DNA of 64,000 nt from Escherichia phage LinBro, in the sequence record OR896830.1. The stretch is one strand, 5' to 3'. Numbering within the stretch: position 1 is the stretch's first letter; each line of letters opens with the position of its first letter. The notes under the pieces are model-generated. The model did no database searches. It was not told the origin of the DNA and saw nothing but the letters and a program-made list of their open reading frames with translations. Shown piece after piece: positions 3,797 to 50,030 of the stretch. The position numbers and the translations under genes are program-made.

Positions 3797-4156
3797 TTAT
3801 GGGAACAGACACTTAATGTCATCGTTTTTGAAAACAAAACTTGTGTAGTTATGACCATCAACATCCAACCAAACAGCCTGAACATCTACACCATCAAGAT
3901 TCTGGTAAAGCTCTTTGATGAAGTGGTCTTTTACAATCTGACTGCTAGTTGTTTCCAGCTTAATGTTCGAGATTGCTGAACCTACAGCCATATAGCCCAT
4001 GACACGTTTCTTCTCAGTATGCTTAATCTTACCATCTTTGTAAGCCATAATGAGATTGGAAAGAATCTTTACACCATAATACTTTTCAAGGTGAGTAGGC
4101 ACACCATAAAAGCCTAATGCGAAGTTTTCAGAGTGGATAATGTTTTCACGTTTCAT
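3797..4156 (-). CDS. hypothetical protein
   Basis: 119-aa ORF in co-directional gene block. Confidence 0.45.
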   Translation of the reverse strand: MKRENIIHSENFALGFYGVPTHLEKYYGVKILSNLIMAYKDGKIKHTEKKRVMGYMAVGSAISNIKLETTSSQIVKDHFIKELYQNLDGVDVQAVWLDVDGHNYTSFVFKNDDIKCLFP

Positions 4157-4157
4157 A

Positions 4158-4457
4158 TTAATCTGCCAACCTTAAATTGAAATTAACACCAAATTTTTCG
4201 CATACTTCCAACATATACTCAAGGGAGACGTTACCAGTGAGGTGGATTATGTTGGATACACGAGCCTGAGAGATACCACAAATTTTAGCGACTTGCTCTT
4301 GAGAAAGACCTCTGGATTTAATCTCTCTCTTAAAACGATGTGCAACGAAGTCTCTCATTTCGTCTACATCCATTGGACAAATATAACTCTCCATTTCAGC
4401 CTCTCTATCAGCCTCCCAATCATCTTGTGGAGCATAAGGGTCAAAAACCTCATTCAT
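4158..4457 (-). CDS. helix-turn-helix DNA-binding protein (XRE-like)
   Basis: C-terminal LSQEQVAKICGISQARVSNI HTH-like segment; start placed at internal Met (MNEVF) to avoid overlap, uncertain. Confidence 0.5.
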   Translation of the reverse strand: MNEVFDPYAPQDDWEADREAEMESYICPMDVDEMRDFVAHRFKREIKSRGLSQEQVAKICGISQARVSNIIHLTGNVSLEYMLEVCEKFGVNFNLRLAD

Positions 4458-6647: not shown

Positions 6648-6804
6648 TACATGCGTAAAGCTCTAAGTCATTTTTATCCGGTTTATGAAAACAGTTTGCT
6701 CCGCAGTGGCAACGAAATGGCTTTCCACCAACTGTCAGGACGAAGGACTGAATCTTTCCATCAGGAGTTCGTACAGCATTTTTATGCTTATCTTCTTTGT
6801 TCAT
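6613..6804 (-). CDS. small Cys-rich protein
   Basis: CHC...CNACN cysteine cluster; overlaps ligase start. Confidence 0.35.
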   Translation of the reverse strand: MNKEDKHKNAVRTPDGKIQSFVLTVGGKPFRCHCGANCFHKPDKNDLELYACNACNTWYHSEE

Positions 6805-11452: not shown

Positions 11453-11679
11453 ACATTACTGCAAAAAATTATAAAAAGCAAGTTGACAATGCACTTGACA
11501 AGGTGTTAATCTTTGCGAAGTGGGTTTTTACTTAAAAGGTTACTTAACAGTTTAACTATACAGATACTTTAAAACTCTTAAAAGATTATTTAATAGCTTT
11601 TAAAAAGCTTTAAAGTATAACGTATAGAATACGTTAAGATAAAAGATTAAAACTTAATAGCTACTTAAAAGAGGCTTAC

Positions 11680-36674: not shown

Positions 36675-37784
36675 ATGACTACTAAAACTAAAGCACAGAT
36701 TGACGCAGAAATTTACAAACTGGTTAAAGAAGGTAAGCTGACTAAAACAGCTATTGCACAGAAATTTAATACTTCAACCCGTTCAGTTGGTCGTGCTGTA
36801 GAGCGTCATGAAGCAACTTTAAAAGGGGATAAGAAGGCAACTTCTACACCAGCTACGAAGACTTTGAAGCAAGTTGCTAAGACATTTAAAAAGAAAGCTG
36901 ACAAACCAGTTGAAAAGGTCGTTAAAGATGCTGTACAGAAAGCTCCGGTAAATAAACTGCATGAAGCTATGCAGAAAGATGACAAGATTGAGTACATGAT
37001 TACTGGTGACTCTGTAATTATGACTTATGGTTCAGAATCTGAAATTGTTGAGTCTACTCATCCGAACTATCAAGAGATTGTAGTTCATGTTGTGAAAGGT
37101 GAGTTCAAAAAAGCCTTTGAATTGATGAACATTCGTAAGTCTATCGAAAACTTCACTCAGGGCGCTATCACAATCAAAGGTGACAAGTTATTCTACGGTG
37201 CTGTTGAGATGCGTTCTACTCTGGTTGACCGTATTCTTCACATGATGAAGACTGGAGATAAAGGTTTCGAACGCCTTGTGATGTTCTTCGAAAAACTGAT
37301 GGAAAACCCATCTAAAGACTCTGTAGAACAACTTTGGGGCTTCGTATCTCACCTTGATGTTGAAATTGATGAAGAAGGCTACATCATTGGTTGGAAGAAA
37401 GTATCTACTCGTGAAGGCAAGCTGGTTGACTCCCACACCTACAGAGTACCTAATGATTTGGGTAACATTGTAGAAATGCCACGTTGGATGGTTGATAATA
37501 ACCGTAACGTGACTTGCTCTCAAGGTCTTCATGTTGGTGCTTGGGATTATGTTCGTTGCTTCTCAGGTGATACAATTCTGAAGGTTCGTGTCCATCCACG
37601 AGACGTTGTATCCGTACCAACTGATTACAACGATATGAAGATGCGCTCGTCTCGTTATGAAGTTGCAGCAATCGTTGATAATCAACGTAAAGTACTGAAA
37701 GCATGGGATGGCAAGACTGAAGCTTTGCATGTCATCGTTGGCACTGCTGGGGAACTTATCTCTCAGCGTAAACGTGAAATCTAA
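36675..37784 (+). CDS. rIIB: rIIB-like protein
   Basis: Directly downstream of rIIA-like gene; LFYGAVEMRSTLVDRIL and VHPRDVVSVPTDYNDMKMR recalled as rIIB-conserved, from memory only. Confidence 0.55.
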   Translation: MTTKTKAQIDAEIYKLVKEGKLTKTAIAQKFNTSTRSVGRAVERHEATLKGDKKATSTPATKTLKQVAKTFKKKADKPVEKVVKDAVQKAPVNKLHEAMQKDDKIEYMITGDSVIMTYGSESEIVESTHPNYQEIVVHVVKGEFKKAFELMNIRKSIENFTQGAITIKGDKLFYGAVEMRSTLVDRILHMMKTGDKGFERLVMFFEKLMENPSKDSVEQLWGFVSHLDVEIDEEGYIIGWKKVSTREGKLVDSHTYRVPNDLGNIVEMPRWMVDNNRNVTCSQGLHVGAWDYVRCFSGDTILKVRVHPRDVVSVPTDYNDMKMRSSRYEVAAIVDNQRKVLKAWDGKTEALHVIVGTAGELISQRKREI

Positions 37785-37797
37785 TAAGTAATTTCTT

Positions 37798-37826
37798 AAA
37801 AGGCTGCTTCGGCGGCCTTTTTTATT
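37798..37826 (+). terminator. rho-independent terminator
   Basis: GGCTGCTTCGGCGGCC hairpin then TTTTTT. Confidence 0.7.
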
Positions 37827-37884
37827 TGTATTTTGTGCAGAGTGCTGTATAATTGTTTTCACGATAAACTAAACAGGAGAACCA

Positions 37885-38433
37885 ATGAAGAAATTGATTC
37901 TAGGTTTGTGCTTAATGTTTACAGCACACTTATCTTATGCAGTTGACTGCCCAGAGCTATCAATTAGCCAAAAAGTAAACATGTTAAAAGCTTACCAGTA
38001 TGGTGAGAATAACATGGGTAAAGGTTGGGGTATCACTCTAGCTGCTATAGCCTTACAAGAGTCAGAGTTAGGTCTGAAGGTAGAGAATAAAAAGACCCAT
38101 GACTATGGTATCTTCCAGAATCACTTGAAGACTGTTGTAAAGCGTAACAAAATTAGTCCTAATGTGGCTAAAAAGAAACTCTTAAAAGACTTTGACTATG
38201 CTGCGAAGGAAACTCACAAAGAGCTTGAGTTTTGGACAAAGGTGCATGGTCAGCCAAAGTCAAAGAAGACTTTACAAAAAGTTTTAGCATCATATAATGC
38301 TGGGTATTCGTACAGAATCCCTAAAGCTAAGAAATATTCTCAAGATGTCTATAACAACATGAAAGTTATTGCTCAATGTGAATTTGCAACAAACATTTCT
38401 AAGGTAAACCATGAAAAAATTAAAAAAGTCTGA
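37885..38433 (+). CDS. secreted protein, possible lytic transglycosylase
   Basis: Signal peptide MKKLILGLCLMFTAHLSYA; ALQESELG...GIFQ resembles SLT-domain ES..G.MQ motif. Confidence 0.4.
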   Translation: MKKLILGLCLMFTAHLSYAVDCPELSISQKVNMLKAYQYGENNMGKGWGITLAAIALQESELGLKVENKKTHDYGIFQNHLKTVVKRNKISPNVAKKKLLKDFDYAAKETHKELEFWTKVHGQPKSKKTLQKVLASYNAGYSYRIPKAKKYSQDVYNNMKVIAQCEFATNISKVNHEKIKKV

Positions 38434-39106
38434 TGAAGTACTGTGTCATGCTTACGACTTACATCCTCATGAGTTAGGTCTTGATTCCTGTGTATGGACT
38501 CCAGAACAGTGTAGGGATTTTGAAGACACTGCAAGAGAAGTTGTATGTTCACTCGAAGAGTTCCACACATCAGAACCAATTGTGAATGTTGTAGATAAAG
38601 AGACTGGACAAACTATAGGTGTAAGTCGTGATAGCTTAGTCATAGTCAATAAAGACCTTGTAGAAAAAGGGAATCTCATCTTAGCAGATATTGATGGTGT
38701 TCTTACAAATTTTAATCACGAAGATTGTTCAACGGAATTGACTGACGGTTCATTCTCGCAGTACACTAATCTTCTTGACTCTGTAAGAGCAAAACCAACG
38801 TATGTTTTCAATATCATTGATGCAATTGCTAATCATGCTGCTGTTGGACTCTTGACAGCGAGAGGTGAATCTCAGAGAATACCTACTGAGATGTTTTTAA
38901 GGCATAACACAGAGCATGACTACATGCTTTTTATGCGTGGTTTTGGGACTAACTCTATAAGCGCAGAAAGTTTGAAAGTGAGGATGATTCAGTCTTGCAT
39001 TCTGCCTTACTTTAATATAGTATGTTTTATAGAAGACACAGAGAAGAATGTGCAGAAGGTGAACAGAATCCTTCCACACATTAAAACCATGTTAGTTAAA
39101 CATTGA
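38411..39106 (+). CDS. hypothetical protein
   Basis: 231-aa ORF. Confidence 0.4.
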   Translation: MKKLKKSDEVLCHAYDLHPHELGLDSCVWTPEQCRDFEDTAREVVCSLEEFHTSEPIVNVVDKETGQTIGVSRDSLVIVNKDLVEKGNLILADIDGVLTNFNHEDCSTELTDGSFSQYTNLLDSVRAKPTYVFNIIDAIANHAAVGLLTARGESQRIPTEMFLRHNTEHDYMLFMRGFGTNSISAESLKVRMIQSCILPYFNIVCFIEDTEKNVQKVNRILPHIKTMLVKH

Positions 39107-39116
39107 GAGAAAACTT

Positions 39117-39581
39117 ATGAACAATATCATTACGGTAGCACTGGACGATACGGTAAACAAATCTGCAATAGTTCGTAAAATGATTCAAGGTAACTTTGAA
39201 GGTAAAATTTTTCGTGCTGTTAATGTAAAAGCTGATGGCAGCATTCGTGAATATCGTGCATTATTGAATGTTAAAAAACACGTAAAAGGTGCTGGTTCAA
39301 CGACTGCACACAAAGAAAACCTGATGACTATCTATGATATGGGTAAGGCTTCAGAGTTAGGTGCTGAAGGTATCGTTAAAGAAGGTGCTCCGTATCGCTC
39401 TTTCAATCTGGAAACTACTCTTATGCTTTCCTTTACAAGTGGTTCTAAAACAATCACTTACCTCTTTACTGATGCTGCAACGGTATCTGCTATTAAGGAT
39501 AGCACTGTCAAAGCTGGCGTAGTTGCTGCTGCAAAAGCTTCTTCGATGGCTGCGAATATCCTTGCTAAAGTCCTCGGTTAA
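39117..39581 (+). CDS. hypothetical protein
   Basis: 154-aa ORF. Confidence 0.4.
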   Translation: MNNIITVALDDTVNKSAIVRKMIQGNFEGKIFRAVNVKADGSIREYRALLNVKKHVKGAGSTTAHKENLMTIYDMGKASELGAEGIVKEGAPYRSFNLETTLMLSFTSGSKTITYLFTDAATVSAIKDSTVKAGVVAAAKASSMAANILAKVLG

Positions 39582-39591
39582 GGTTAAGATA

Positions 39592-39620
39592 CAGGCTCCT
39601 TCGGGAGCCTTTTTCATTTT
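39592..39620 (+). terminator. rho-independent terminator
   Basis: GGCTCCTTCGGGAGCC hairpin then TTTTT. Confidence 0.7.
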
Positions 39621-39633
39621 AGGAGATTGTTAA

Positions 39634-39981
39634 ATGACATTTAAAGAGTTCTGTCAAGCTACTTTCATAATTGTTTTCTTAGTTGGGGCAGGTGTCTGGG
39701 GAGGATACTCTTACAGAGACTACCAAGTTGCTGAAACTGAGCTAAACAATCAAAAGCTCATAAGTGTTGCTAAAGATGCTTATCAGGAAGGATTAGTCAC
39801 ACTGAGCACCAATTACAAAAATGATTTGAAAGACGTGCTTGCTAAGAATAAGCACACAAAAGAGGTACTAACATATGAAAAGACTAAGCCAGAGTTTTAT
39901 AATGTTTGTGTTACTGATAATTATGTCAGGGTGTTCAACGAACAAAGTGAGCAGTACATTCAAAAACTCCCAAGTAAGTGA
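39634..39981 (+). CDS. putative inner-membrane spanin (Rz-like)
   Basis: Single N-terminal TM helix then periplasmic region; second ORF embedded in +1 frame. Confidence 0.45.
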   Translation: MTFKEFCQATFIIVFLVGAGVWGGYSYRDYQVAETELNNQKLISVAKDAYQEGLVTLSTNYKNDLKDVLAKNKHTKEVLTYEKTKPEFYNVCVTDNYVRVFNEQSEQYIQKLPSK

Positions 39982-40144
39982 GAGTGATAAGTACACCCAA
40001 GAAGAATCACGGTATATCATCAAAGGCAACACAGGCAGCGATGTAGCAGCAGCCCTTGAGTTCTATCGTGACGGCTTTTACCAGTGCACAATCAAAGCTA
40101 ACAACCTTATTGACATGATTTTATTAGGGAATAAGCAGCAATGA
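39875..40144 (+). CDS. putative outer-membrane lipoprotein spanin (Rz1-like)
   Basis: Lipobox LIIMSGC; overlaps 3' end of preceding ORF in another frame. Confidence 0.45.
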   Translation: MKRLSQSFIMFVLLIIMSGCSTNKVSSTFKNSQVSESDKYTQEESRYIIKGNTGSDVAAALEFYRDGFYQCTIKANNLIDMILLGNKQQ

Positions 40145-40410
40145 CAGAGAATCAAGATACTTTTTACGTAGAAGGGTACTTACTGTTACCACGACCAAAA
40201 GAGACTTATATGCGAATTGATTTCTCACCAACCATTATGGATAATGTGATGTGCCATATCTTTATGCAAGGTGTCACAGCACAGCTTAAACATGTTGGTA
40301 AAGAGTGCAAAATAAAGGTTGACACTCATCCAGAAATCAAAGAGAATCACTACACATGGTTCTTACCAGATTCTAAAGAAATCTTAGCAGTTCTTAAAAC
40401 GAGGAAGTAA
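40141..40410 (+). CDS. hypothetical protein
   Basis: 89-aa ORF. Confidence 0.4.
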   Translation: MTENQDTFYVEGYLLLPRPKETYMRIDFSPTIMDNVMCHIFMQGVTAQLKHVGKECKIKVDTHPEIKENHYTWFLPDSKEILAVLKTRK

Positions 40411-40412
40411 CT

Positions 40413-40739
40413 ATGCAGATTAATGGAAGAGACTTTGTAGCCGTTTACTATGAGAAAGGTAAAGAAGTTGGCGTAGCACAAGTATCTTATGGCAATGGTA
40501 AGTGGCTATATGGAACAATCGCAGTAGTTGGAACAAGAAGTGATACAAAAACTTTTAAAGACTGTGTTGACCTTCTTGAAGAATCCATCCATAATCATTG
40601 GTGTCTGATATGGATGACTGACAACGAAGTGATAGAACGCTTCAAAAAGATTGGTATCAACATTGATAGTATTGAGCATGTTGATTTATATGAACTAACT
40701 GAGAAGGTAAACTATGAAAGTAATACTAGCCAGAGATAA
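40413..40739 (+). CDS. hypothetical protein
   Basis: 108-aa ORF. Confidence 0.4.
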   Translation: MQINGRDFVAVYYEKGKEVGVAQVSYGNGKWLYGTIAVVGTRSDTKTFKDCVDLLEESIHNHWCLIWMTDNEVIERFKKIGINIDSIEHVDLYELTEKVNYESNTSQR

Positions 40740-40941
40740 AAAGACACGGAAAATTATCCGGTCAGCAGTATTTATTGGAAGAAATGAAGTGATTCCTTTT
40801 ACAGCAAATGATGTGATAGTCTACAGGAAAAAATTAGCATTCAGTTATTGCTTACGTGGCTTTATCTCCCAGCCATTAGAAGATTTTAAAAATCGTTGTG
40901 GTAAAGGCATCATCATTCAAGAGGCAATTATTCATGGCTGA
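40714..40941 (+). CDS. hypothetical protein
   Basis: 75-aa ORF. Confidence 0.35.
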   Translation: MKVILARDKKTRKIIRSAVFIGRNEVIPFTANDVIVYRKKLAFSYCLRGFISQPLEDFKNRCGKGIIIQEAIIHG

Positions 40942-41134
40942 CTTCTGCAAAGACTGTGCTATCGAGATGTTTGGGCGTGATACAGGTGATTTAAAAGGTC
41001 TTATCACTGAAGATGACTTTAAAGCTGGCTACGCAATGCCAGTAATCTGTGAAGGTTGTGGGTGCATCTGGGTAGACCACGAAGGACAGCGTGTAAAACC
41101 TTCAGAAGATAAAGAGTCTTGGGAGAGATGTTAA
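40934..41134 (+). CDS. hypothetical Cys-rich protein
   Basis: ORF 40898..41134 trimmed to ATG (MADFCKDC); CxxC...CEGCGC. Confidence 0.35.
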   Translation: MADFCKDCAIEMFGRDTGDLKGLITEDDFKAGYAMPVICEGCGCIWVDHEGQRVKPSEDKESWERC

Positions 41135-41920
41135 ATGGGTATTGTAAAAATAATCAATGGTGATATCTTTGCCGCATTTGATAAAGGTAAGTTTGACATC
41201 ATCGGTCACGGTTGCAACTGTATGAATTTAATGGGTGCAGGTATCGCTGACAAGATTTCTAAACTTTACCCAAAAGCATATGAGACCGATACAGAAGTTT
41301 ATCTATATGCAGGTGGTATAGGACACAAGCCCTGTGAAAATTTACTAGGCAATTTCTCTGTAGCACGTTTAGAACAAGGCCGTATAGCTAACCTTTACAC
41401 TCAGCTTAAGACTGGTAAAGATGCCCGATACAGTGCTTTAGAATCATCTTTGAAACAGCTTAACAGATACTGTGAAGTTAACCAGTTGAAGAAAGTTGGT
41501 CTACCTATGATTGGTGCAGGTATCGGTGGGCTAGACCCTCAAGCCGTCACAGTTATCATTAATCAGGTGATGAAGAGTGTAGATGTGTATCTGTATGTCT
41601 ATGAAGGAGAGATGTACCACAAGTTACGCTCAGGTTGGAAGAACTACTGTGAACCAGAATACTTTGCAGGTGTAGTAACGTTCACAGACAATACAGTTAC
41701 CCTCTTCAGACGAAGAAAAGGTAAGATACATCAAAGTAACCCTCCGGTTGAAAAGATGTCTCTGAGTAACGCTCTAGTTACCCACCTGTCGAAGAGCAAT
41801 CACAGAATTGCAGTAACATTTGGCAGTGATGCAGATACTTATATCTATGCAAGGACTGATGAGGGTATTGAGTTAATCTTCTCTTCACCAGAGCTTACCT
41901 TCTTAGACGCAAAGAACTAA
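41135..41920 (+). CDS. Macro-domain protein (ADP-ribose binding or hydrolysing)
   Basis: N-terminal IINGDIF...DIIGHGCNC...MGAGIA matches macro-domain GDIT..D.IVNAAN..GGG pattern. Confidence 0.55.
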   Translation: MGIVKIINGDIFAAFDKGKFDIIGHGCNCMNLMGAGIADKISKLYPKAYETDTEVYLYAGGIGHKPCENLLGNFSVARLEQGRIANLYTQLKTGKDARYSALESSLKQLNRYCEVNQLKKVGLPMIGAGIGGLDPQAVTVIINQVMKSVDVYLYVYEGEMYHKLRSGWKNYCEPEYFAGVVTFTDNTVTLFRRRKGKIHQSNPPVEKMSLSNALVTHLSKSNHRIAVTFGSDADTYIYARTDEGIELIFSSPELTFLDAKN

Positions 41921-41990
41921 GAAATTTCGTAGTATATTCACAATAGACTAAGCCTTTCTTATCTGGTAAATTTTTCAGGTAAGGAGGGCT

Positions 41991-42172
41991 TTTTCATTTC
42001 AGATTTGTGCAGGTAGAGTTCTGTAGAGAAATCTGTAGAGAGAATTTTAAACTCCAAAGAGAAAATTCATTTTCAAACTGTGCAGGTAATCTCCAAAGAG
42101 CTTTTTCATTTTCAAAACGTGCAGACCCCGCTCAGGTCGGGCAAGAAAAATCATTTTAGAATTGTGCAGGTA
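41991..42172 (+). repeat. four direct repeats TCATTTT(N3-6)GTGCAGGTA
   Basis: Copies near 41991, 42066, 42104 and 42149; a related TTTTGTGCAGAG follows the rIIB terminator at about 37830. Confidence 0.5.
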
Positions 42173-42348
42173 GGTGGGTGTAGGTGGGGCTGTCGCCATT
42201 TCTCACAAGGCTACCACATCTGAAAATAAAAGTCAACAGAAAAATTTGTAGCGGATTGAAAAATAATTCTTGATTGTAGTTCTGTTTTGTGGTAGTCGCG
42301 CGCACCCGTTTCATTACAATTTTTGCAAAAATATTTTTAAAATTCCTA

Positions 42349-42377
42349 TTGACTCTTTGAGTATGGTTATCTAATAT
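42349..42377 (+). promoter_or_regulatory. sigma70-like promoter for the small-gene array
   Basis: TTGACT, 17-bp spacer, TAATAT; about 50 bp upstream of first array gene. Confidence 0.6.
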
Positions 42378-42427
42378 TTGCATCAGACGGGCAATCAAGC
42401 CCACTTCCTAAACTGGAGAATCTAAAA

Positions 42428-42634
42428 ATGCTTTACAGTCGCGAATTGATGGTTACAACTAACATTAACACAAAGGCAAAACGTTTTTACATGCAAATCT
42501 GTGGCGTATGGTCCAGAATATCAGAAGCTGACTATTGCAACTATGTAGAAACGGCTATTAATTCGAATTGCTACCTTACAAGAAACACTAAGAAGTTTAC
42601 AAGACAGACAGCAATTTACTACTACGATAAATAA
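42428..42634 (+). CDS. array gene 1, hypothetical
   Basis: 68 aa, GGAG RBS, first ORF after promoter. Confidence 0.4.
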   Translation: MLYSRELMVTTNINTKAKRFYMQICGVWSRISEADYCNYVETAINSNCYLTRNTKKFTRQTAIYYYDK

Positions 42635-42720
42635 AGTACTTTACAAGGGGCTTATAGTTCGATAAAGTAAGCCCCAGATAAAGAGCTTTACTAACTAACC
42701 TTAAACTAGGAGATTCAAAA
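42631..42720 (+). repeat. type-A leader element, copy 1
   Basis: ATAAAGTACTTTACAAGGGGCTTA..TAAGCCCCAGATAAAGAGCTTTAC with 8-bp stem, then AGGAG-type RBS and ATG. Confidence 0.6.
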
Positions 42721-43104
42721 ATGGCTTATCGTGCACCGAAATTCATCAACAAAGACAACTTTCGCAAAGTACTGGAGAAGTCACTTGATGAGAATTTTAA
42801 AGGCAATATTATTGTTGTTCACGCATTCAATTTTAAGTATGATGTAAACGGGAATAGAATCAACCATTACACGGCAACCATGTTAGATGGTACACTATCA
42901 AGTGAAAAAGCCGTACTGAATGCACTAGCAGGACGCGGAAAAGTATTAGTAAGATGCGATAAGCGACGTTATCAGGGTGGCGCATATGGTCATGATGATG
43001 CTGTTTATCATCTTGAAAATATGGGCTATAAAGTAGAAAAAGCTGGGGTATCGCAAATCATCGGGAGCGATGGTTATGTAACAATCTTCAAAATTAACGA
43101 ATAA
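42721..43104 (+). CDS. array gene 2, hypothetical
   Basis: 127 aa behind type-A leader. Confidence 0.45.
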   Translation: MAYRAPKFINKDNFRKVLEKSLDENFKGNIIVVHAFNFKYDVNGNRINHYTATMLDGTLSSEKAVLNALAGRGKVLVRCDKRRYQGGAYGHDDAVYHLENMGYKVEKAGVSQIIGSDGYVTIFKINE

Positions 43105-43190
43105 AGTACTTTACAAGGGGCTTATAGTTCGATAAAGTAAGCCCCAGATAAAGAGCTTTACCACTAAATCCTAAATTGGAGAACTTAAAA
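43101..43190 (+). repeat. type-A leader element, copy 2
   Basis: Near-identical to copy 1. Confidence 0.6.
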
Positions 43191-43484
43191 ATGGCTATTA
43201 TCAAAAACGTTGTAATTCCTGCAAAAACTCGTGATGACGCTCGTATTATGGCTAAAAAGTTATGCGGGAAAGTGGTTGACAACGGAAAACAAGCTGCTGT
43301 AAGGTGGGGCGTGAAGGCTGATAAACAGTTGAAGTTAAAAAATTCACCGATAAACCTTTTTACATGTGTAAACACTATCGGGAAGACAAATGTATACACG
43401 AAAAAGGCATACATTAGACGCGTAGCATTAACATCCCCCATTCGTACAATGAGAAGTTATGCAAAGCTGAAAAATAACCGATAA
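43191..43484 (+). CDS. array gene 3, hypothetical
   Basis: Start moved to ATG after leader (MAIIKNVV); track start 43176 is a TTG inside the repeat. Confidence 0.45.
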   Translation: MAIIKNVVIPAKTRDDARIMAKKLCGKVVDNGKQAAVRWGVKADKQLKLKNSPINLFTCVNTIGKTNVYTKKAYIRRVALTSPIRTMRSYAKLKNNR

Positions 43485-43571
43485 AGTACTTTACAAGGGG
43501 CTTAAAAGTTGATATCTTAAGCCCCAGATAAAGAGCTTTACCACTCAATCCTTAAACTAGGAGACTCAAAA
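43481..43571 (+). repeat. type-A leader element, copy 3 (variant loop)
   Basis: Same flanks; stem loop changed to GGGGCTTAAAAGTTGATATCTTAAGCCCC. Confidence 0.55.
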
Positions 43572-43868
43572 ATGAAATTATCGAATAAAGTTCGTGAAAA
43601 TCTAAGCAAGTTACTCAACAAAATTGATTTTATCGAGACATCAAGAAATAATCATGATGTTATGGAATGGTTGCACGGCAAAATAAAAGGCCGTCGCGTA
43701 GTGATTTGCTTATGGAATAGTTGCAGGGAGTATAAAAAACCTGTATTGCAAGTAAATATTTATGATGATACTTTTAAAAGTCCAGTAAAGTCTAAAAGTG
43801 ACTTATTAGAATCCTATGAGATAACTGTAAATGGCAAAGTATCACGTAAAGAGGAAACACCATGTTAA
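43572..43868 (+). CDS. array gene 4, hypothetical
   Basis: 98 aa behind type-A leader. Confidence 0.45.
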   Translation: MKLSNKVRENLSKLLNKIDFIETSRNNHDVMEWLHGKIKGRRVVICLWNSCREYKKPVLQVNIYDDTFKSPVKSKSDLLESYEITVNGKVSRKEETPC

Positions 43869-44194
43869 TGACTGGCATCACCGCAATCCTTGCCATTTTC
43901 GCGCTATATAAGGCATATAAAGCCTATAATCTAGCAAATAAGGCAATCACGCAACAGGTCAATAATAGCCTTGTAATGAGCTTTCTGGAGCGTTTAAGTG
44001 ATGAACAAATAAAACGGTTAGAAATGAGCTTCAGATTTCAATCAAAAACTTATCAAATCAGCGACATTTTCAAAGATGATTTTCAGTTAGTCGATGATTA
44101 TAATTCTCTGATAAATGCTTTAAATGTCAGTGACTTAAAAGACTACTACGCTGTAATTGTTCAAGAATTGAGCAAACGAAAAAATTTCTCTTGA
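43862..44194 (+). CDS. array gene 5, hypothetical
   Basis: 110 aa; overlaps gene 4 stop, GAGGAA RBS, no leader of its own. Confidence 0.4.
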   Translation: MLMTGITAILAIFALYKAYKAYNLANKAITQQVNNSLVMSFLERLSDEQIKRLEMSFRFQSKTYQISDIFKDDFQLVDDYNSLINALNVSDLKDYYAVIVQELSKRKNFS

Positions 44195-44281
44195 TTTTGG
44201 TTTTTAAAACAAGTAAATTACTAATCAACGGGAGGTAATAACCTCCCCACTAAGTAAAGTCCTTAAACTAGGAGATTCAAA
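44189..44281 (+). repeat. type-B leader element, copy 1
   Basis: TTGATTTTGGTTTTTAAAACAAGTAAATTACTAATCAACGGGAGGTAATAACCTCCCC...AGGAG; stem GGGAGG/CCTCCC. Confidence 0.6.
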
Positions 44282-44554
44282 ATGTACACTACTAACAACG
44301 GTCGCACCTTAAACGTAACCATTCGTCACTATGTGAACGGTGTAATGCACTTCGAAGATTTACAAGCCGAACAACATATCTTAGATTGGCAACTTGCAGG
44401 ACTACAAAAAACTGCTACAGGATACGGGAAAAAGATTCCAACCAGTTGGAAAGTATACTACGAAGGCCGTTTGCGCAGAATTTATCAAGATGTATACAGC
44501 AATAGCGCAACAAGTTACATCATAGTAAAAGGTAAAAAGCTGCATTTAGTATAA
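44282..44554 (+). CDS. array gene 6, hypothetical
   Basis: 90 aa behind type-B leader. Confidence 0.45.
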   Translation: MYTTNNGRTLNVTIRHYVNGVMHFEDLQAEQHILDWQLAGLQKTATGYGKKIPTSWKVYYEGRLRRIYQDVYSNSATSYIIVKGKKLHLV

Positions 44555-44640
44555 AGTACTTTACAAGGGGCTTATAGTTCGATAAAGTAAGCCCCAGATA
44601 AAGAGCTTTACCACTAAATCCTAAATTGGAGAACTTAAAA
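44551..44640 (+). repeat. type-A leader element, copy 4
   Basis: Near-identical to copy 2. Confidence 0.6.
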
Positions 44641-45045
44641 ATGGCTATTAATAATCGCGAGTTATCAATCTTAAAAGCACGTTTGACCGTTAACCGGATT
44701 AATGTTATTACGTCATCAGCACCGGACGAAACATTGCACAACATTATTGGGAAGATTCAAAGCGTTATCTTAGACGTTGAAAACGTAAAAAACTCATTGG
44801 CTGACGTTGCAGCAGGTATCACGCTAGACGGTGCACAATATGAAATGACCGACATGTTAGGCAAATCTAAGGTAATGAATAAAGAGCTTGATTTGAAAAT
44901 GTTTCGGTTTGCTGTTAAAGTGTGGCTATCTGTCGAGTATGACGCTAACTTTGCAATCGCTGACTTTTTCGCCACTTGGTTACAACGTAATTTGACAAAT
45001 CATGATTTTCGTGGTATCTGTGATGCAATTTACACAGAACTCTAA
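44641..45045 (+). CDS. array gene 7, hypothetical
   Basis: Start moved to ATG after leader (MAINNREL). Confidence 0.45.
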   Translation: MAINNRELSILKARLTVNRINVITSSAPDETLHNIIGKIQSVILDVENVKNSLADVAAGITLDGAQYEMTDMLGKSKVMNKELDLKMFRFAVKVWLSVEYDANFAIADFFATWLQRNLTNHDFRGICDAIYTEL

Positions 45046-45053
45046 AAATTTAT

Positions 45054-45146
45054 CTTGATTTTGGTTTTTAAAACAAGTAAATTACTAATCAACGGGAGGT
45101 AATAGCCTCCCCACTAAACAAAGTCCTTAAACTAGGAGATTCAAAA
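45054..45146 (+). repeat. type-B leader element, copy 2
   Basis: Near-identical to type-B copy 1. Confidence 0.6.
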
Positions 45147-45350
45147 ATGGCTATTATTAACGGTTTAACCATTGAAACTACACACATCAAAGATATTAAA
45201 GTCGGTGATGTAGTTCTCTTTCACGGTGTAGAAAAAACCGTCACGGCGAAAGATATTACAGAGGACTCCTTCATGGGTAGGTCACTCTTCGGTGATTCTT
45301 ATTGCTTAGGTTACCGTGCAGTTTTAAAAGTTGTAAAAAATAACCGATAA
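45147..45350 (+). CDS. array gene 8, hypothetical
   Basis: 67 aa behind type-B leader. Confidence 0.4.
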   Translation: MAIINGLTIETTHIKDIKVGDVVLFHGVEKTVTAKDITEDSFMGRSLFGDSYCLGYRAVLKVVKNNR

Positions 45351-45435
45351 AGTACTTTACAAGGGGCTTATAGTTCGATAAAGTAAGCCCCAGATAAAGA
45401 GCTTTACCACTAAATCCTAAACTGGAGATTCTAAA
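45347..45435 (+). repeat. type-A leader element, copy 5
   Basis: Near-identical to copy 1. Confidence 0.6.
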
Positions 45436-45978
45436 ATGAAATGCTTTCACGGTACTACCCAAGAAAATTTCCTCAACCTGATTAATAACGGTGACAAGCC
45501 ATCAGGTGCATGGAATTGTTCGGATATGGACGGCAATTTTTACGTGTACCCAGAAAATAAAATCTATGGCGACGATGAGGAAGAGATAATCTCTGAAGGT
45601 ATCCAGCAAGCGTTAGGTAATGCCACTATTACGGCCGCTTTCCAGATGAAAACCCAAAATATTGTTATCTTAGAACTTGATATCCCAGAGGATGACCTAA
45701 ATGACGATTATTCTTGTGATAATATGTCTGGCGTAGCAAGTTTTACAGAATACTTCGATTTAAATTGGATTAAAAAGGTTTACGTAACCGAGTTTAATGC
45801 GATGTTTTCGCCTTTTTGTCTTCCTTCATTGGATAACCCAAATTTAAAGTATCTTGATGAGTCTCTGGAGCTTCTTGCTAAAAGTATTCAACAGTCGGAT
45901 AGTATTCAGGTTTTTTGTGACATCATGGATACACTAGCGGGAAACATCACAGAGAGAGATTTAAAGAGCTTTTTCTAA
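45436..45978 (+). CDS. array gene 9, hypothetical
   Basis: 180 aa behind type-A leader. Confidence 0.45.
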   Translation: MKCFHGTTQENFLNLINNGDKPSGAWNCSDMDGNFYVYPENKIYGDDEEEIISEGIQQALGNATITAAFQMKTQNIVILELDIPEDDLNDDYSCDNMSGVASFTEYFDLNWIKKVYVTEFNAMFSPFCLPSLDNPNLKYLDESLELLAKSIQQSDSIQVFCDIMDTLAGNITERDLKSFF

Positions 45979-46009
45979 AAACCTATGCAATCACCTTATA
46001 AACACTGAT

Positions 46010-46030
46010 TAGCCCCTCACAGGGGCTTTT
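46010..46030 (+). terminator. rho-independent terminator
   Basis: AGCCCCTCACAGGGGCT hairpin then TTTT. Confidence 0.55.
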
Positions 46031-46044
46031 AAGAGGCTTAAATC

Positions 46045-46278
46045 ATGCTTACAACCGTTTATCTTATCCTTTCTATTTGTAATGGTCATTCATGTGATTT
46101 TAAAGGGCTTGAGGAGTTTACAGGAAGTAAAGAAAATGCTGTTCAGGTCTGTCAGATAGCAAGACAAGACTATCCCGCTAGTGATGATATACAATGTTAC
46201 TTTAAGACAGAAGATGAAGACGGTATCTATTTTGACAGCGTAGATGGTCAGTATGAAATTATCATTGAAAAAGACTAG
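46045..46278 (+). CDS. array gene 10, hypothetical
   Basis: 77 aa; no conserved leader. Confidence 0.4.
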   Translation: MLTTVYLILSICNGHSCDFKGLEEFTGSKENAVQVCQIARQDYPASDDIQCYFKTEDEDGIYFDSVDGQYEIIIEKD

Positions 46279-46296
46279 ACAAGCCTGATAAAAGTA

Positions 46297-46366
46297 TGTA
46301 AATTGTCAATCAACGGGAGGGATAACCTCCCTACTAAGTAAAGTCCTTAAACTAGGAGATTCAAAA
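46297..46366 (+). repeat. type-B leader element, copy 3 (5'-shortened)
   Basis: GTAAATTGTCAATCAACGGGAGGGATAACCTCCC...AGGAG. Confidence 0.55.
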
Positions 46367-46708
46367 ATGGCTTATGTAACCGTAATTACCGATAAAGATG
46401 GCTCATCTTGGTCAACTCAAGTAAGCGATAAGATGTCACCTATGCAGTGCCTAAAATACTTTGAGCAATGGAACAAAGGCGAGGACACAAGCCCCTTTCA
46501 AGTGATGCAGATTATCCATGTAGATAACGAAGGGAATAAAACGGTTTTAAATAGTGAGTACTACGCAAGCCGTTTTGAAACGAGAAGTAAAACAATGAAG
46601 CTTTTACGTGAATCCGGTTATGCCCATATCGCCGCGTTAATCTGGGATGACCTGCTAAAAAGTCAGCGTATCAGCTATGTAAAACCTGAAAAAATATTCA
46701 TCAGTTAA
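46367..46708 (+). CDS. array gene 11, hypothetical
   Basis: 113 aa behind type-B leader. Confidence 0.45.
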   Translation: MAYVTVITDKDGSSWSTQVSDKMSPMQCLKYFEQWNKGEDTSPFQVMQIIHVDNEGNKTVLNSEYYASRFETRSKTMKLLRESGYAHIAALIWDDLLKSQRISYVKPEKIFIS

Positions 46709-46740
46709 TCAATAACTTACAAAAAACTTTCAAAAAAGTA

Positions 46741-46769
46741 TTGACAACGCCCCTTGACATTGGTAGATT
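46741..46769 (+). promoter_or_regulatory. sigma70-like promoter inside the array
   Basis: TTGACA, 17-bp spacer, TAGATT. Confidence 0.4.
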
Positions 46770-46852
46770 TGTTCGAGGGGGTTTATCTAAAAGGGATTAA
46801 CTTAAAAGATTCTTTATAGATAAACTTAAAAAATTGCTTGCAATCAGATATC

Positions 46853-46929
46853 AAAACAAGTAAATTACTAATCAACGGGAGGTAATGACCTCCCCACTAA
46901 ATAAAGTCCTTAAACTAGGAGATTCAAAA
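46853..46929 (+). repeat. type-B leader element, copy 4
   Basis: Near-identical to type-B copy 1. Confidence 0.6.
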
Positions 46930-47460
46930 ATGAACAAATTTCAAGCTATCAACTACATTCGTTCAAATGCTGTAATGGCTAAGCCTGTTAAAGATACCTA
47001 CGAATTTCGCTGCAATGGGGTACACTTTGCAACCATCACTAAATCAGAAAATGGGGCTTATTATGTACATCGTCGTAATGTTGCAACCGTTGTAGTCTCT
47101 CACTTTATGCAAGCTGTAGCAGAGTTATTACCGCTATTCTTAGGGATTTACTTAGATGAGTGTAAAAACGTTCGCAACCACGTTAAAGACCTTTTAAACG
47201 GTTATAAAATGGCTTATGAGCGTTCTATCAAGTCCTTAAACAAGTTCTATAAAGCCCCTGTAAATACTGTTTCAATGGCTTACAGTGTAAGCGGTGAGTT
47301 GGTTAGTCTCTTCGAAGTGGAAGAAATCGAACTGCATGACTTGCGCCCTAGTGGTTACAGCAAAACATTGGGAGAGGGTTTATCTTTCAATATCAAGAAC
47401 TTAGAAAAAACTTTAAAAGATATTGAAAAAGACATTGACGAGACAATCAAAAATCTGTAA
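46930..47460 (+). CDS. array gene 12, hypothetical
   Basis: Start moved to ATG after leader (MNKFQAINY); track start 46885 lies inside the repeat. Confidence 0.45.
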   Translation: MNKFQAINYIRSNAVMAKPVKDTYEFRCNGVHFATITKSENGAYYVHRRNVATVVVSHFMQAVAELLPLFLGIYLDECKNVRNHVKDLLNGYKMAYERSIKSLNKFYKAPVNTVSMAYSVSGELVSLFEVEEIELHDLRPSGYSKTLGEGLSFNIKNLEKTLKDIEKDIDETIKNL

Positions 47461-47528
47461 ATTGTCAATCAACGGGGAGGGAATGACCTTCCCCACTAAA
47501 TAAAGTCCTTAAACTAGGAGACTCTAAA
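47456..47528 (+). repeat. type-B leader element, copy 5
   Basis: Near-identical to type-B copy 3. Confidence 0.55.
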
Positions 47529-47777
47529 ATGGCAACTATCCGCGCAACTGTTAACGAATTTGGCTTCTACTCTCTGGATGTTAAATTCGACCTTGTGGGT
47601 ACTGATAACGCCTTTGAAATGGTGAAAGTTCTTATCAGTCAGACCATCAAAGACTATAATCCTTCAGATGAGTTCTGGAAAGAAACAAAACAGGAAGTTC
47701 TCAAAGAGGGCTATTCATATCACTATTGGGGTGAAAAAATCGTCTCCCTGTACTACGACAAAGAAGGCACTAACTAA
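47529..47777 (+). CDS. array gene 13, hypothetical
   Basis: 82 aa behind type-B leader. Confidence 0.45.
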   Translation: MATIRATVNEFGFYSLDVKFDLVGTDNAFEMVKVLISQTIKDYNPSDEFWKETKQEVLKEGYSYHYWGEKIVSLYYDKEGTN

Positions 47778-47815
47778 TCGACGCAACGGGGCTAAATAGC
47801 CCCAGATACCTTTAC

Positions 47816-47842
47816 AGCCCCTCTGAATAGGGGCTTTTTTAC
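47816..47842 (+). terminator. rho-independent terminator closing the array
   Basis: AGCCCCTCTGAATAGGGGCT hairpin then TTTTTT. Confidence 0.65.
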
Positions 47843-47843
47843 G

Positions 47844-49424
47844 TCTTATGAAATGCCTATACAATCCTTTCCCTTTCCTTTCCAGAATCTTATCAGACCT
47901 TAAAAAGCAATAACTTTACAGCCTTTTACTAAGTCAATTAATTGGCCTTATTAATAAGCCCTTAAACATAAGCCAATAACCCCAGAAAGGGGGCAACCCA
48001 TTTAAACGCCATATAAAGCCCTATAACGGCCTTTTTAACCTAACTTAAGGGATTGCATTACCTCACCCTTAAAAGCCCTTTATAAAGCTTCACAGAGCCT
48101 TAAAAGAATCTTATAAGGGTGTAAGCTTTATTATCTCGTTAGCTATCTTGTGAACTACTAAACAACCCCCTTGATAGTAACTGAAAAGTATGTTATAGGG
48201 GCTTTAAAGTTACTTTGAAGTAGCTTAAAAGTTACGTAAATGCTAGCCCCCTTAACATTTTCTTAACATTTTCTTAACAATCCCTACATAGTTATGCTTG
48301 TTAGAGACTTGTTAGCCCCTTGTTAAATCTCTGTTAAGACCACGTAAAAGCCTTGTAAGAGTCTTTGACATAGCCTTAAAAGCTCCTGTAAAGCCCTATA
48401 AAGAGGTGTCTGTATAGTTGGGGGATAGATACTAGGAAGAGACTTAAAAGGGCTTATAAAGAGCTATAGAGAGCTTCTAAGAGGTATGTTTAAGGAATCA
48501 CTAAGAAAGAGAGGGAACGATAAGAAAGAAGTAGTGACCATGTTAATAGCTTGTTAAAAAGATTAAACACTTGTTAGAGACTTGTTAATTATCTTAATAA
48601 AATAACTCTTTAAAATTAACTTGTTAGCTCTTGTTAGTCATCTGTTAAGATTCTGTAAAGCCTATTCAGCACTTGTTAGAAAACTGTTAAGCCCTTGTTA
48701 GTTCTGTTAAGAATCTGTTAAGACCTTTGAAGAGTTGTTAAGAAGATGTGAGAACTGTTAAGAGATTGTTAAGGATATTTTAAAATTTTGCAAAGTACTT
48801 GTAAGGGAGCTGTTAAGGGCTACCAAGCAGATATACATCTTCTACAGATATTTTTCAGTTCCTTCAAAGACCCTAAAAAATGACTTGATAGTCCTATTTT
48901 ATAAAAATTTTAAGATTCTGAATAATTACCTAGACAGTCTTTTAAAAATACAGGTAATAACAGGCTTATAAGATACCTTGTTAGTACCGTGTTAGACCTT
49001 GTGAGATAAGGTCTGTAAAGATATTCCTGTTAAGTTTGTTAAAACAGTCTATATAGAGGCTTAGTAGTACCTAGTGAACACCTATAGAGAGTGTCATAGC
49101 TGACATAGAGATTAAGAGGTGTATAGGAGCTTCTAAGAGGGTATAGAGAGATGGTTAAGGTGATTGTATAGGTTGTTAAGAAGGATTGTTAGAAGAGTGT
49201 TTAGAAGGGCTATTTAGAAGGGCTATACAGAGAGCTATTAAGACCACTAGATAGTTACTAAGACACTATATAGTACTATATAACTATATAGAGAGTAAGA
49301 TTAAGAAGGTTGTTAAGAAGGGTAGATATTTTGTTCACATATGATGGTGACCCAGAGGTTGGGACAACCGATAAAATTTTATAAAAATTAAAAAGCCCCC
49401 AATTAAGGAGGCTCTTAAGATATT
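47844..49424. repeat. ORF-free region dense in short direct repeats
   Basis: No ORF of 60 aa or more on either strand; more than 20 copies of (C/T)TGTTA(A/G) at helical-turn spacing, CCTTAAAAG repeats, tandem TTAGAAGGGCTAT. Confidence 0.5.
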
Positions 49425-50030
49425 TTAAATGAGTGTTTCCAGAACTGTCTTCAGTGATGACTTGGTTGTCTGATAAAAATGAGTGAAGCCGTTGTTGTTA
49501 TCAAACACCTGCATCATGATATCATCTCCCTTGATTGGGTACACTCGGATATCATAGTGAAGCCCATTAAAGACAGCAGAACCACTACAGAATGAACTAA
49601 AATCATCTACTGAGATGTACTCTTCATGACCTGTGATTTTTATACAAACACCTTTACTCGGTCTCTTAGGGTTGATATCTTCCATCACAGACATATTCTG
49701 TCCACCAAGAGATATCATAGTGACCACTTTACGGTTCTTCTGTCTGAAGTACATTTTAACCTTCTGCAAGGTATCTTCATAGAACGGATAAGACTTCTCT
49801 ACAAAGATTCCTTCAAGTGGCTCTTTACCGTTTACAATACCTCTGGTATGGCGTACTGAGAAGATAAGTTGCTCTAGCAGGTCAAGGCTTTCTTCGGATA
49901 GTGCTTCCCGAATATCATTCCAATCAAGTACTAGGTAGTTACCTTCAACATCTTTTAAGTTATCTTTTTCCATATCTATCACACCATTATCGTAAAACTT
50001 GGTAAGCTGGGACTGCAAACTTGTTGCCAT
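49425..50030 (-). CDS. hypothetical protein
   Basis: 201-aa ORF. Confidence 0.45.
   Translation of the reverse strand: MATSLQSQLTKFYDNGVIDMEKDNLKDVEGNYLVLDWNDIREALSEESLDLLEQLIFSVRHTRGIVNGKEPLEGIFVEKSYPFYEDTLQKVKMYFRQKNRKVVTMISLGGQNMSVMEDINPKRPSKGVCIKITGHEEYISVDDFSSFCSGSAVFNGLHYDIRVYPIKGDDIMMQVFDNNNGFTHFYQTTKSSLKTVLETLI

Follow-up and report, generated by a model that had tools for sequence, protein, structure and literature searches.

Why would a phage keep four copies of one short, asymmetric sequence in the gap between two groups of genes? The question is raised by a locus of Escherichia phage LinBro, of which a stretch of 64,000 nucleotides (record OR896830.1), referred to here as the window, was analysed. 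Felix O1 and its relatives are classics among the phages used for typing and biocontrol. A sequence-only reading of the window had noticed direct repeats upstream of a series of small genes and had offered two explanations for them, a binding-site array or a phage-specific class of promoters. The genome paper on Felix O1 from 2010 lists direct repeats of at least 24 bp and proposes a few promoters, but does not mention the array (PMC3185647). The further literature that we searched contained no earlier description of it, nor transcript maps, ChIP data or usable intergenic essentiality data for phage Bas63.

Layout of the locus

The region from 41000 to 43500 is 98.8% identical to Escherichia phage Barry, where window position 41000 corresponds to position 6792, and it matches 253 records, nearly all of them from Felixounavirus. 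On the 5' side of the array rIIA, rIIB, polynucleotide kinase, the spanins and a Macro-domain gene (41135–41920, plus strand, Pfam Macro) all lie on the plus strand; Macro is the only Pfam domain found among the neighbouring genes. The Macro-domain gene is followed by a rho-independent terminator at 41950–41999 on the plus strand, identified by a terminator scan, whose RNA has a 17-pair stem including G-U pairs. The records of Barry, ASO1B and KhF1 carry a terminator annotation for the same element. Its T-tract doubles as the T-rich 5' part of the first repeat.

On the other side of the array, alignment and allele comparison delimit a variable G+C-rich tract behind repeat 4 (42173–42225), which is G-rich on the plus strand in the window and in Barry, whereas Felix O1, KhF1, Mooglevirus and Suspvirus have a C-rich version of it (CCAGCCCAGCCCCTCTCCCCC...). 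This tract also holds a weak inverted match to the region of repeat 1. An A/T-rich non-coding block (42226–42325, plus strand), conserved in the alignment of Felixounavirus, Suspvirus and Mooglevirus, then leads from the array to the promoter of the small-gene cluster at 42326–42377 on the plus strand. The promoter scan places its −35 element TTGACT at 42349–42354 and its −10 element TAATAT at 42372–42377, separated by a 17-nt spacer. Across genera TTGAC and TA-TAT are invariant in the alignment, and ASO1B has a promoter annotated at the corresponding place. The −35 element is preceded by the A/T tract AAAAATATTTTTAAAATT, which we take to be UP-element-like by its consensus, and stands 177–365 bp from the array. 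The first gene of the cluster (42428–42634, plus strand) encodes 68 amino acids and belongs to phrog_5293, of unknown function; it opens a series of about 17 small plus-strand genes of unknown function (a cluster of about 5.5 kb) that are transcribed toward the right genome end. Pfam and the promoter scan thus bear out the position assigned to the repeats at the outset, between the Macro-domain gene and the sigma70-like promoter at 42349–42377.

The repeated unit

The core TCATTT-N7-GTGCAG occurs in four exact copies in the 64-kb window, all on the plus strand and all at this one locus (41994–42012, 42067–42085, 42106–42124 and 42151–42169), with start-to-start spacings of 73, 39 and 45 bp. 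By chance a mean of 0.02 matches would be expected, and none of 100 dinucleotide-preserving shuffles of the window reached four. The sequence-only reading had described four direct repeats of TCATTTT with a variable gap of three to six nucleotides behind it. Its four copies are indeed where it put them; the gap, however, is fixed at 7 nt after TCATTT (6 after TCATTTT). The repeated unit is also longer than had been noticed, about 28–31 nt, and can be written as RAGRG-(CTTTTT or AAAAWT)-TCATTTTCAAWWT-GTGCAGGT. Its GGTA extension is missing from copy 3, which reads GTGCAGACC, and present in the other three.

For scoring, a weight matrix was built from 32 sites of eight genomes. Repeat 1 (41985–42015, AGGGCTTTTTCATTTCAGATTTGTGCAGGTA) reaches 37.0 bits, repeat 2 (42058–42088, AGAGAAAATTCATTTTCAAACTGTGCAGGTA) 35.5 bits, repeat 3 (42097–42127, AGAGCTTTTTCATTTTCAAAACGTGCAGACC, without GGTA) 32.0 bits and repeat 4 (42142–42172, CAAGAAAAATCATTTTAGAATTGTGCAGGTA) 33.9 bits, each on the plus strand. 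Repeats 2 and 3 together form a tandem unit of 39 bp that is 81% identical. Every site consists of two blocks, TCATTTT and GTGCA, whose centres lie about 12 bp, or roughly one helical turn, apart, and has no dyad symmetry.

Conservation across phages

How widely is this arrangement kept? A sensitive DNA search with the 541-bp gap as query returned 288 phage records, in which Mooglevirus is about 71% identical to the query and the Kolesnikviruses of Erwinia match only across the repeats. The loci of Felix O1, ASO1B, KhF1 and Suspvirus EP1, when read individually, have four copies each. So do Mooglevirus SFPB, Maleficent and 3HA14, with a spacing of 75/41/45, and the Kolesnikviruses phiEa21-4 and Coenus, with a spacing of 37/37/39 and a core that ends in GTGCATAG. 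The KhF1 record breaks inside the array region and its two ends overlap by about 380 bp, so that the break looks like an overlap left by assembly. IMG/VR, scanned for the exact pattern in two copies, gave 31 loci, 30 of which lie on contigs of Ounavirinae size or on fragments of such genomes and contain three to five copies. On L030, a divergent IMG/VR contig of 88 kb, the Macro gene is followed by five copies of AAAWTCATTTTAAAAACGTGCATAGG.

The array also keeps its place. In Felixounavirus, Suspvirus EP1, Mooglevirus, Kolesnikvirus and L030 it occupies the same syntenic slot, just behind the terminator of Macro/Tk.4 and about 180–200 bp ahead of a promoter of the form TTGAC-17-TAnnAT. In Si3-type phages the upstream gene differs, yet the first repeat is again fused to the terminator T-tract of that gene; this fusion to a swapped terminator fits a boundary element. 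The hosts of the phages that carry the array belong to Escherichia, Salmonella, Shigella, Citrobacter and Erwinia.

Within the array, conservation is concentrated in the two blocks. Over the 32 sites the positions of TCATTT and GTGCA carry 1.4–2.0 bits each and the spacers about 0.2–0.5 bits, and column conservation maps agree with this. The Macro protein is 62% identical in Mooglevirus and 43.5% identical in Kolesnikvirus, and the spacers between the repeats are unalignable between genera, so near-invariant cores in this setting point to strong purifying selection. A second feature is the 3' flank, which is specific to the lineage and common to all copies within a genome: GTGCAGGT (GGT) in the coliphage genera and GTGCATAG (TAG) in Kolesnikvirus and L030. 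Such sharing is concerted evolution, as would be expected if one factor reads all the copies. The spacing, by comparison, differs by 2 bp from one genus to another, and a fixed helical phasing is therefore not maintained. The array is conserved among relatives; a lack of such conservation had been named, when the repeats were first noticed, as an outcome that would speak against them.

Outside these phages the element has not been found. In a scan of representative bacterial genomes and metagenome contigs, genuine arrays appeared on Ounavirinae contigs only, and E. coli genomes searched with a 38-nt unit contained no homologous site. Satellites, plasmids and other phage groups were considered as carriers and rejected, the remaining matches being unrelated tandem repeats in which the 12 specified bases occur by coincidence. 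One of them, L022/L087, lies upstream of terminase-sized ORFs.

Uniqueness of the motif and the promoter question

The weight matrix was used to scan the window together with Barry 29000–54500, the portion of that genome missing from the window, about 88 kb in all. The copies in the array score 32–37 bits, and the next best sites only 13.5, 13.4 and 11.6 bits. With a best outside site of 13.5 bits the element is an array confined to a single locus, and the motif is not spread at random through the genome, which had been named as the outcome that would speak against it. The site at 13.5 bits is the related sequence that had been pointed out behind the rIIB terminator. It does exist (37822–37840, plus strand, TTATTTGTATTTTGTGCAG; matrix position 37812), but it is weak and overlaps an ordinary promoter, TTGTAT-N16-TATAAT, with its −10 element at 37848–37853. 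What it shares with the array motif is mainly a terminator-type T-tract and GTGCAG, and it probably does not belong to the functional array. The terminator at 39593 is likewise followed by TTTTCATTTT. From these two cases it can be seen that the 5' half of the motif resembles the terminator tails of this phage.

Are the repeats promoters? That they do not follow the sigma70 consensus had been stated from the start, and rightly so: a sigma70 scan of 37000–50000 reports no promoter-like site within 41985–42172 and no copy with a usable −10 element. The bases behind GTGCA vary by copy and by genus (GGTAGAGT, GGTAATCT, GACCCCGC, TAGGAA, TAAGGT), which means that no −10-like element is kept. Readings as sigma70, sigma54, sigma32, sigmaE or extended −10 promoters on either strand, by eye and by scan, gave no consistent −10 and were rejected. 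A dispersed phage-specific promoter class, the second of the two explanations offered initially, is ruled out by the genome-wide scan, in which the motif occupies one locus only, and finds no conserved −10-like element to rest on.

Coding sequence, host-factor sites and other identities

Several further identities were tried. In the window copies 2–4 are in frame on the minus strand, which could suggest a protein-coding repeat, but the frame is broken in other genera. The array is not coding, since spacings of 41 and 37 bp cannot be divided by three and the ORFs that overlap it lack conservation; the minus-strand ORF at 42156–42404, which had been suspected of being spurious, is among those not kept as an open frame in relatives. 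A CRISPR mini-array or solitary CRISPR repeat units were rejected, since the gaps between the 31-nt units measure 9–42 bp where repeats of 28–37 bp with spacers of at least 26 bp would be expected, and the flanks are semi-conserved. To our knowledge, the repeats do not resemble host CRISPR repeats. A terminase site (pac or cosB) or a genome-end signal was discarded as well, the terminus being more than 6.6 kb away.

Known host factors were searched by their consensus. DnaA, IHF, CRP, marbox, Fis, sigma54, RfaH ops, boxA and Chi have no match in the array of the window. With up to one mismatch to the DnaA box TTWTNCACA, the array region of the window contains one match, outside the repeats, against 0.77 expected. 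The window repeats themselves read ACCTGCACA at the corresponding place, with three mismatches to the box, and each of the four repeats of phiEa21-4 contains a one-mismatch DnaA box. In view of the three mismatches in the coliphage copies we treat the resemblance to DnaA boxes as lineage-specific. Each of two such resemblances, that of GGTAG to ops and that of TGTGCATAG to the DnaA box, is limited to one lineage. The marbox AYNGCACNNWNNRYYAAAY has no match at up to three mismatches in either the window or phiEa21-4.

Taken together, these results establish the repeats as genuine, non-coding and confined to one locus; they are under strong purifying selection throughout the subfamily and are not promoters.

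A candidate protein-binding array

Which function would such an element have? We infer that the repeats act as DNA rather than as RNA, that a protein binds them and that this binding has an effect. The reading that we tentatively prefer is that the array is a set of candidate double-stranded DNA binding sites in the same orientation for one sequence-specific protein, with a boundary or regulatory role. Independent binding of one protein best fits the combination of asymmetric two-block sites, a single direction, flexible spacing and a flank variant shared by all copies, and the location, right after a terminator and before the main promoter of the cluster, makes a role at a boundary or in regulation most likely. 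The binding-site array that had been suggested at first agrees well with this: it stands at a single locus, in one orientation, and its cores are conserved in at least four genera while the spacers drift.

One protein would then occupy the four sites, either as a monomer with two DNA-reading heads, in the style of plasmid iterons or marboxes, or as subunits arranged head to tail. It would sit behind the terminator that presumably closes an rIIA-rIIB-spanin-Macro operon and ahead of the promoter that would open the terminal cluster. There, the bound protein may set the timing or the strength of transcription into the cluster, the array being an upstream operator or activator array. Alternatively, it might be a polar roadblock in support of the Macro terminator. 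The distances weigh against the regulatory version, as 177–365 bp from the −35 element is far for a classical sigma70 operator or activator site, and no conserved copy overlaps the promoter itself. That no consensus among the host factors tested matches the window array counts against the reading as a whole. As to the binder, the sole annotated regulator is an Xre-type HTH protein (4161–4457, minus strand) that Felixounavirus, Suspvirus and Mooglevirus all have. The search did not detect it in the array-bearing Erwinia phages, and because the two do not co-occur there it was dropped as a candidate.

Known systems offer partial parallels. Marboxes, the sites of MarA, SoxS and Rob, are likewise asymmetric sites of about 20 bp in which a GCAC-type block and an A/T block lie about one helical turn apart, and sites bound independently in this way would tolerate variable spacing. 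Against this likeness, the array has at least four mismatches among the 14 specified positions, its A/T block is 1–2 bp out of register, its sites are 180–365 bp from the promoter and the phage encodes no AraC-family protein. For the roadblock version, the Sal-box/TTF-I terminators of rDNA and Tus-Ter also place protein sites in the same orientation directly behind the end of a transcription unit; this is a likeness of layout only, and an analogy at most. We know of no such polar-barrier system in phages of this type.

Other readings of the array

How do other explanations compare with a protein-binding array? Four tandem phage-specific promoters, used by host RNA polymerase with the help of a phage factor to transcribe the small-gene cluster, would explain why the repeats are oriented toward that cluster, and tandem early promoters are known in T7. 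The Felix O1 paper leaves room for such a scheme in that it describes the temporal regulation of transcription as not understood (PMC3185647). However, the motif stands at no other gene in about 88 kb, nothing behind GTGCA is kept where the sigma70 scan came back empty, and no sigma-like or polymerase-modifying protein is annotated. In addition, copies 37–45 bp apart are closer than one polymerase footprint, and we consider tandem promoters very unlikely. An RNA-level motif is improbable too. Here, a transcript that reads through the terminator or starts nearby would carry four copies of UCAUUUU-N6-GUGCA and either bind and titrate an RNA-binding protein or direct processing. In its favour, the copies are all on the strand transcribed to either side of the array, the flexible spacing is what independent linear RNA motifs would show, and the plus-strand fold is somewhat more stable than that of shuffled sequences (z = −2.33, against −1.6 on the minus strand). 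Yet a strong terminator ends directly at repeat 1, and the stretch from there to the array is free of promoter-like sites; the best Rfam match reaches 27.4 bits against a gathering score of 60 (all E-values at least 0.11), and the repeats fall into non-equivalent positions of the fold. A structured RNA was rejected on these grounds: no Rfam match, a modest z-score and repeats that fold unalike. A CsrA site requires GGA, which the motif lacks. Hardly credible, finally, is a neutral origin, in which the repeats would be functionless leftovers of a tandem duplication of a terminator tail. It could draw on the resemblance of the 5' half CTTTTTCATTTT to the T5-N-T4 tails of other terminators in these phages (including those in Table 2 of PMC3185647) and on the tandem unit formed by repeats 2 and 3. 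It would have to explain, though, why the cores are near-invariant where the flanking protein is 43–62% identical and the spacers are unalignable, and why the copy number is held at three to five in all genera examined. The conservation data already contradict it.

Two readings that take the repeats as protein sites of another kind deserve a closer look. The repeats may be iterons of a phage origin, whose initiator would bind them and open the adjacent A/T-rich DNA, helped by transcription from the neighbouring promoter. This is the alternative that we take most seriously, while still thinking it unlikely. Iterons as in lambda ori, in F, R6K and P1 or in T4 oriE are direct repeats in one orientation (at least three, of about 17–25 bp) that are unique in the replicon, and the array, with three to five asymmetric two-block repeats of about 19–28 bp, is built alike. 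A conserved A/T-rich block and a strong promoter lie within 200 bp, the two-block geometry resembles sites bound by monomeric Rep proteins, and the Kolesnikvirus copies each have their one-mismatch DnaA box. Regular helical phasing, however, is absent: typical iterons follow each other about 22 bp apart and in phase, whereas the spacing here is irregular (37–75 bp) and not kept between genera, with 73/39/45 in the window, 75/41/45 in Mooglevirus and 37/37/39 in Kolesnikvirus. The A/T-rich DNA (42226–42346) is separated from the array by a G+C-rich tract of 50 bp and is largely explained as the UP element of the promoter, and the coliphage copies are not DnaA boxes. No recognised initiator gene is annotated in four relatives, where most genes are of unknown function, and the replication genes are more than 25 kb away. 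Also, the cumulative GC skew passes 42 kb without an inflection and has its minimum at about 11 kb; the skew is positive from there to about 49 kb, but in phages it also follows the direction of transcription and is weak evidence. At the skew minimum (about 11–11.5 kb) a divergent A/T-rich region of 230 bp adjoins the DNA polymerase gene and is a better candidate for the origin than the array.

The second of these readings starts from the position of the array in the genome. The terminal repeat is 581 bp long in Pr103Blw (PMC8303462) and 608 bp in UAB_Phi87 (PMC4837284). The annotated repeat of Pr103Blw maps by homology to window 48246–48824, and the record of pEP20 starts exactly at window 48824. 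If this position is the right physical end, as the homology indicates, the array lies 6.65–6.84 kb from it, or 7.5–7.8% of about 88 kb, and delimits, on the inner side, a terminal block of about 17 small genes. In Coenus the array is found at about 4.55–4.70 kb, followed by small plus-strand genes up to 11.4 kb and a non-coding terminal zone at 11.4–12.85 kb; the distance from array to end in this Kolesnikvirus is about 6.7–7.4 kb, with a different gene content. Phage T5 transfers the first 7.9% of its DNA and then stops at a conserved, repeat-rich untranslated region, a signal that lies inside a 10-kb terminal repeat and contains inverted repeats, palindromes and DnaA boxes (10.1101/866236). 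Could the array be a signal of this kind for DNA entry or another DNA transaction, at which a host or virion protein pauses transfer at the edge of the terminal early block? In both phages an untranslated region that is conserved and carries repeats adjoins the inner side of a terminal block of small early genes, about 7.5–8% of the genome in size and transcribed toward the end, here from promoters just inside the array, and the repeats are more conserved than the adjacent genes; the similar distance in Kolesnikvirus adds to the likeness. The remaining features of the T5 signal are missing, as the terminal repeat here is about 0.58 kb long and 6 kb away, the repeats are direct instead of inverted or palindromic and the window copies are not DnaA boxes, which are paired in T5. 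The resemblance is one of position only; the literature that we searched contains no report of two-step transfer in Felix-O1-like phages or other Ounavirinae. We thus regard a pause signal as quite improbable. Little credence can be given to its fuller form, drawn by analogy, in which the DNA of a contractile-tailed phage would enter in stages as that of T5 does, with the array as the cis signal: the terminal 6.7 kb or so would enter or act first, and the protein-bound repeats would keep back the rest until early proteins are made. Were it true, two-step transfer would no longer be confined to the Tequintaviruses, and a defined 28-bp element would be at hand for testing it.

Significance for the subfamily

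On present evidence the array is an ordinary kind of element, a putative binding-site array, and no other non-coding element at the edge of the terminal early-gene block is conserved to the same degree. If it is read, as we prefer, as a set of sites for one protein, its 28-bp site in four copies could serve as bait for the binder, and the array offers a target for deletion in engineerable members such as Bas63. The identity of the binder could in turn reveal an early/late switch, a replication origin or a DNA-entry checkpoint of the subfamily.

Repeated elements downstream of the array

Small genes on the plus strand begin at 42428, downstream of the array, and each gene of this terminal cluster is preceded by a promoter-like site of the form TTTACA-17-TAAAGT. 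Such sites lie at 42640-42668, 43110-43138, 44560-44588 and 45356-45384, with similar ones elsewhere in the cluster, and a G+C hairpin (GGGGCTTA...TAAGCCCC) occupies the space between the two hexamers. In this they resemble the cassettes of promoter plus stem-loop in T4-type hyperplastic regions. Among the repeats that the 2010 Felix O1 genome paper lists (PMC3185647), the direct repeats of 57 bp correspond to these promoter-like hairpin sites.

The tract immediately 3' of repeat 4 (42170-42231) exists as two alleles among close relatives: a G-rich one, with GGTAGGTGGGTGTAGGTGGGG on the plus strand, in the window and in phage Barry, versus a C-rich one in Felix O1, KhF1 and most other close relatives. 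GGTAGGTGGGTGTAGGTGGGG is a possible G-quadruplex former, and the G-rich allele is also weakly similar, in inverted orientation, to the region of repeat 1, with arms at 41991-42007 and 42215-42231 that are 82% complementary.

The array in database records

In the GenBank record of KhF1 (KT184313.1) the two ends share about 380 bp, and this overlap exactly spans the repeat array, corresponding to 41978-42355 of the window. It is probably an untrimmed assembly overlap and not the true terminal repeat.

Outside the group, the motif was matched in an unrelated 10-kb viral contig, Ga0180433_10011929, which carries two 50-bp tandem repeats with AATCATTTTAACATAGTGCAG (reverse complement, 3899-3990). 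About 60-110 bp downstream of these repeats come a sigma70-like promoter and a series of ORFs (151, 543, 127 and 535 aa), which, to judge by their sizes, may include a small terminase, a large terminase and a portal protein. The motif match is probably due to chance. Felix-O1-type sequence of about 91% identity was also seen in records named Staphylococcus phage SA1 (GU169904.1) and Campylobacter phage; these entries appear to carry a wrong label or to be contaminated.

Candidate regulator, origin and terminus

The sole annotated regulator in these phage genomes is a 99-aa Xre/Cro-type helix-turn-helix protein encoded on the minus strand at 4161-4457 (Pfam HTH_3, E = 5e-10). Felixounavirus, Suspvirus and Mooglevirus have it; in the Kolesnikviruses of Erwinia no such protein was detected.

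Between the minus-strand DNA polymerase gene and plus-strand genes lies an A/T-rich divergent region of 230 bp (11453-11679), which coincides with the cumulative GC skew minimum and contains several CTTAAAAG repeats and one 27-nt near-palindrome. We regard it as a candidate for an origin or for a region of divergent early promoters. The same octamer, CTTAAAAG, recurs in a non-coding zone of about 1.5 kb (47840-49400) between the plus-strand small-gene cluster and minus-strand genes, where short repeats are crowded together (CTTGTTAG, CTGTTAAG, TTAACA, CCTTAAAAG and CTATAGAGAG). The direct terminal repeat of 581 bp that is annotated in Pr103Blw has its homologue within this zone, at 48246-48824, and position 48824 is the start point of the pEP20 record; the zone probably contains the terminus and serves in packaging.
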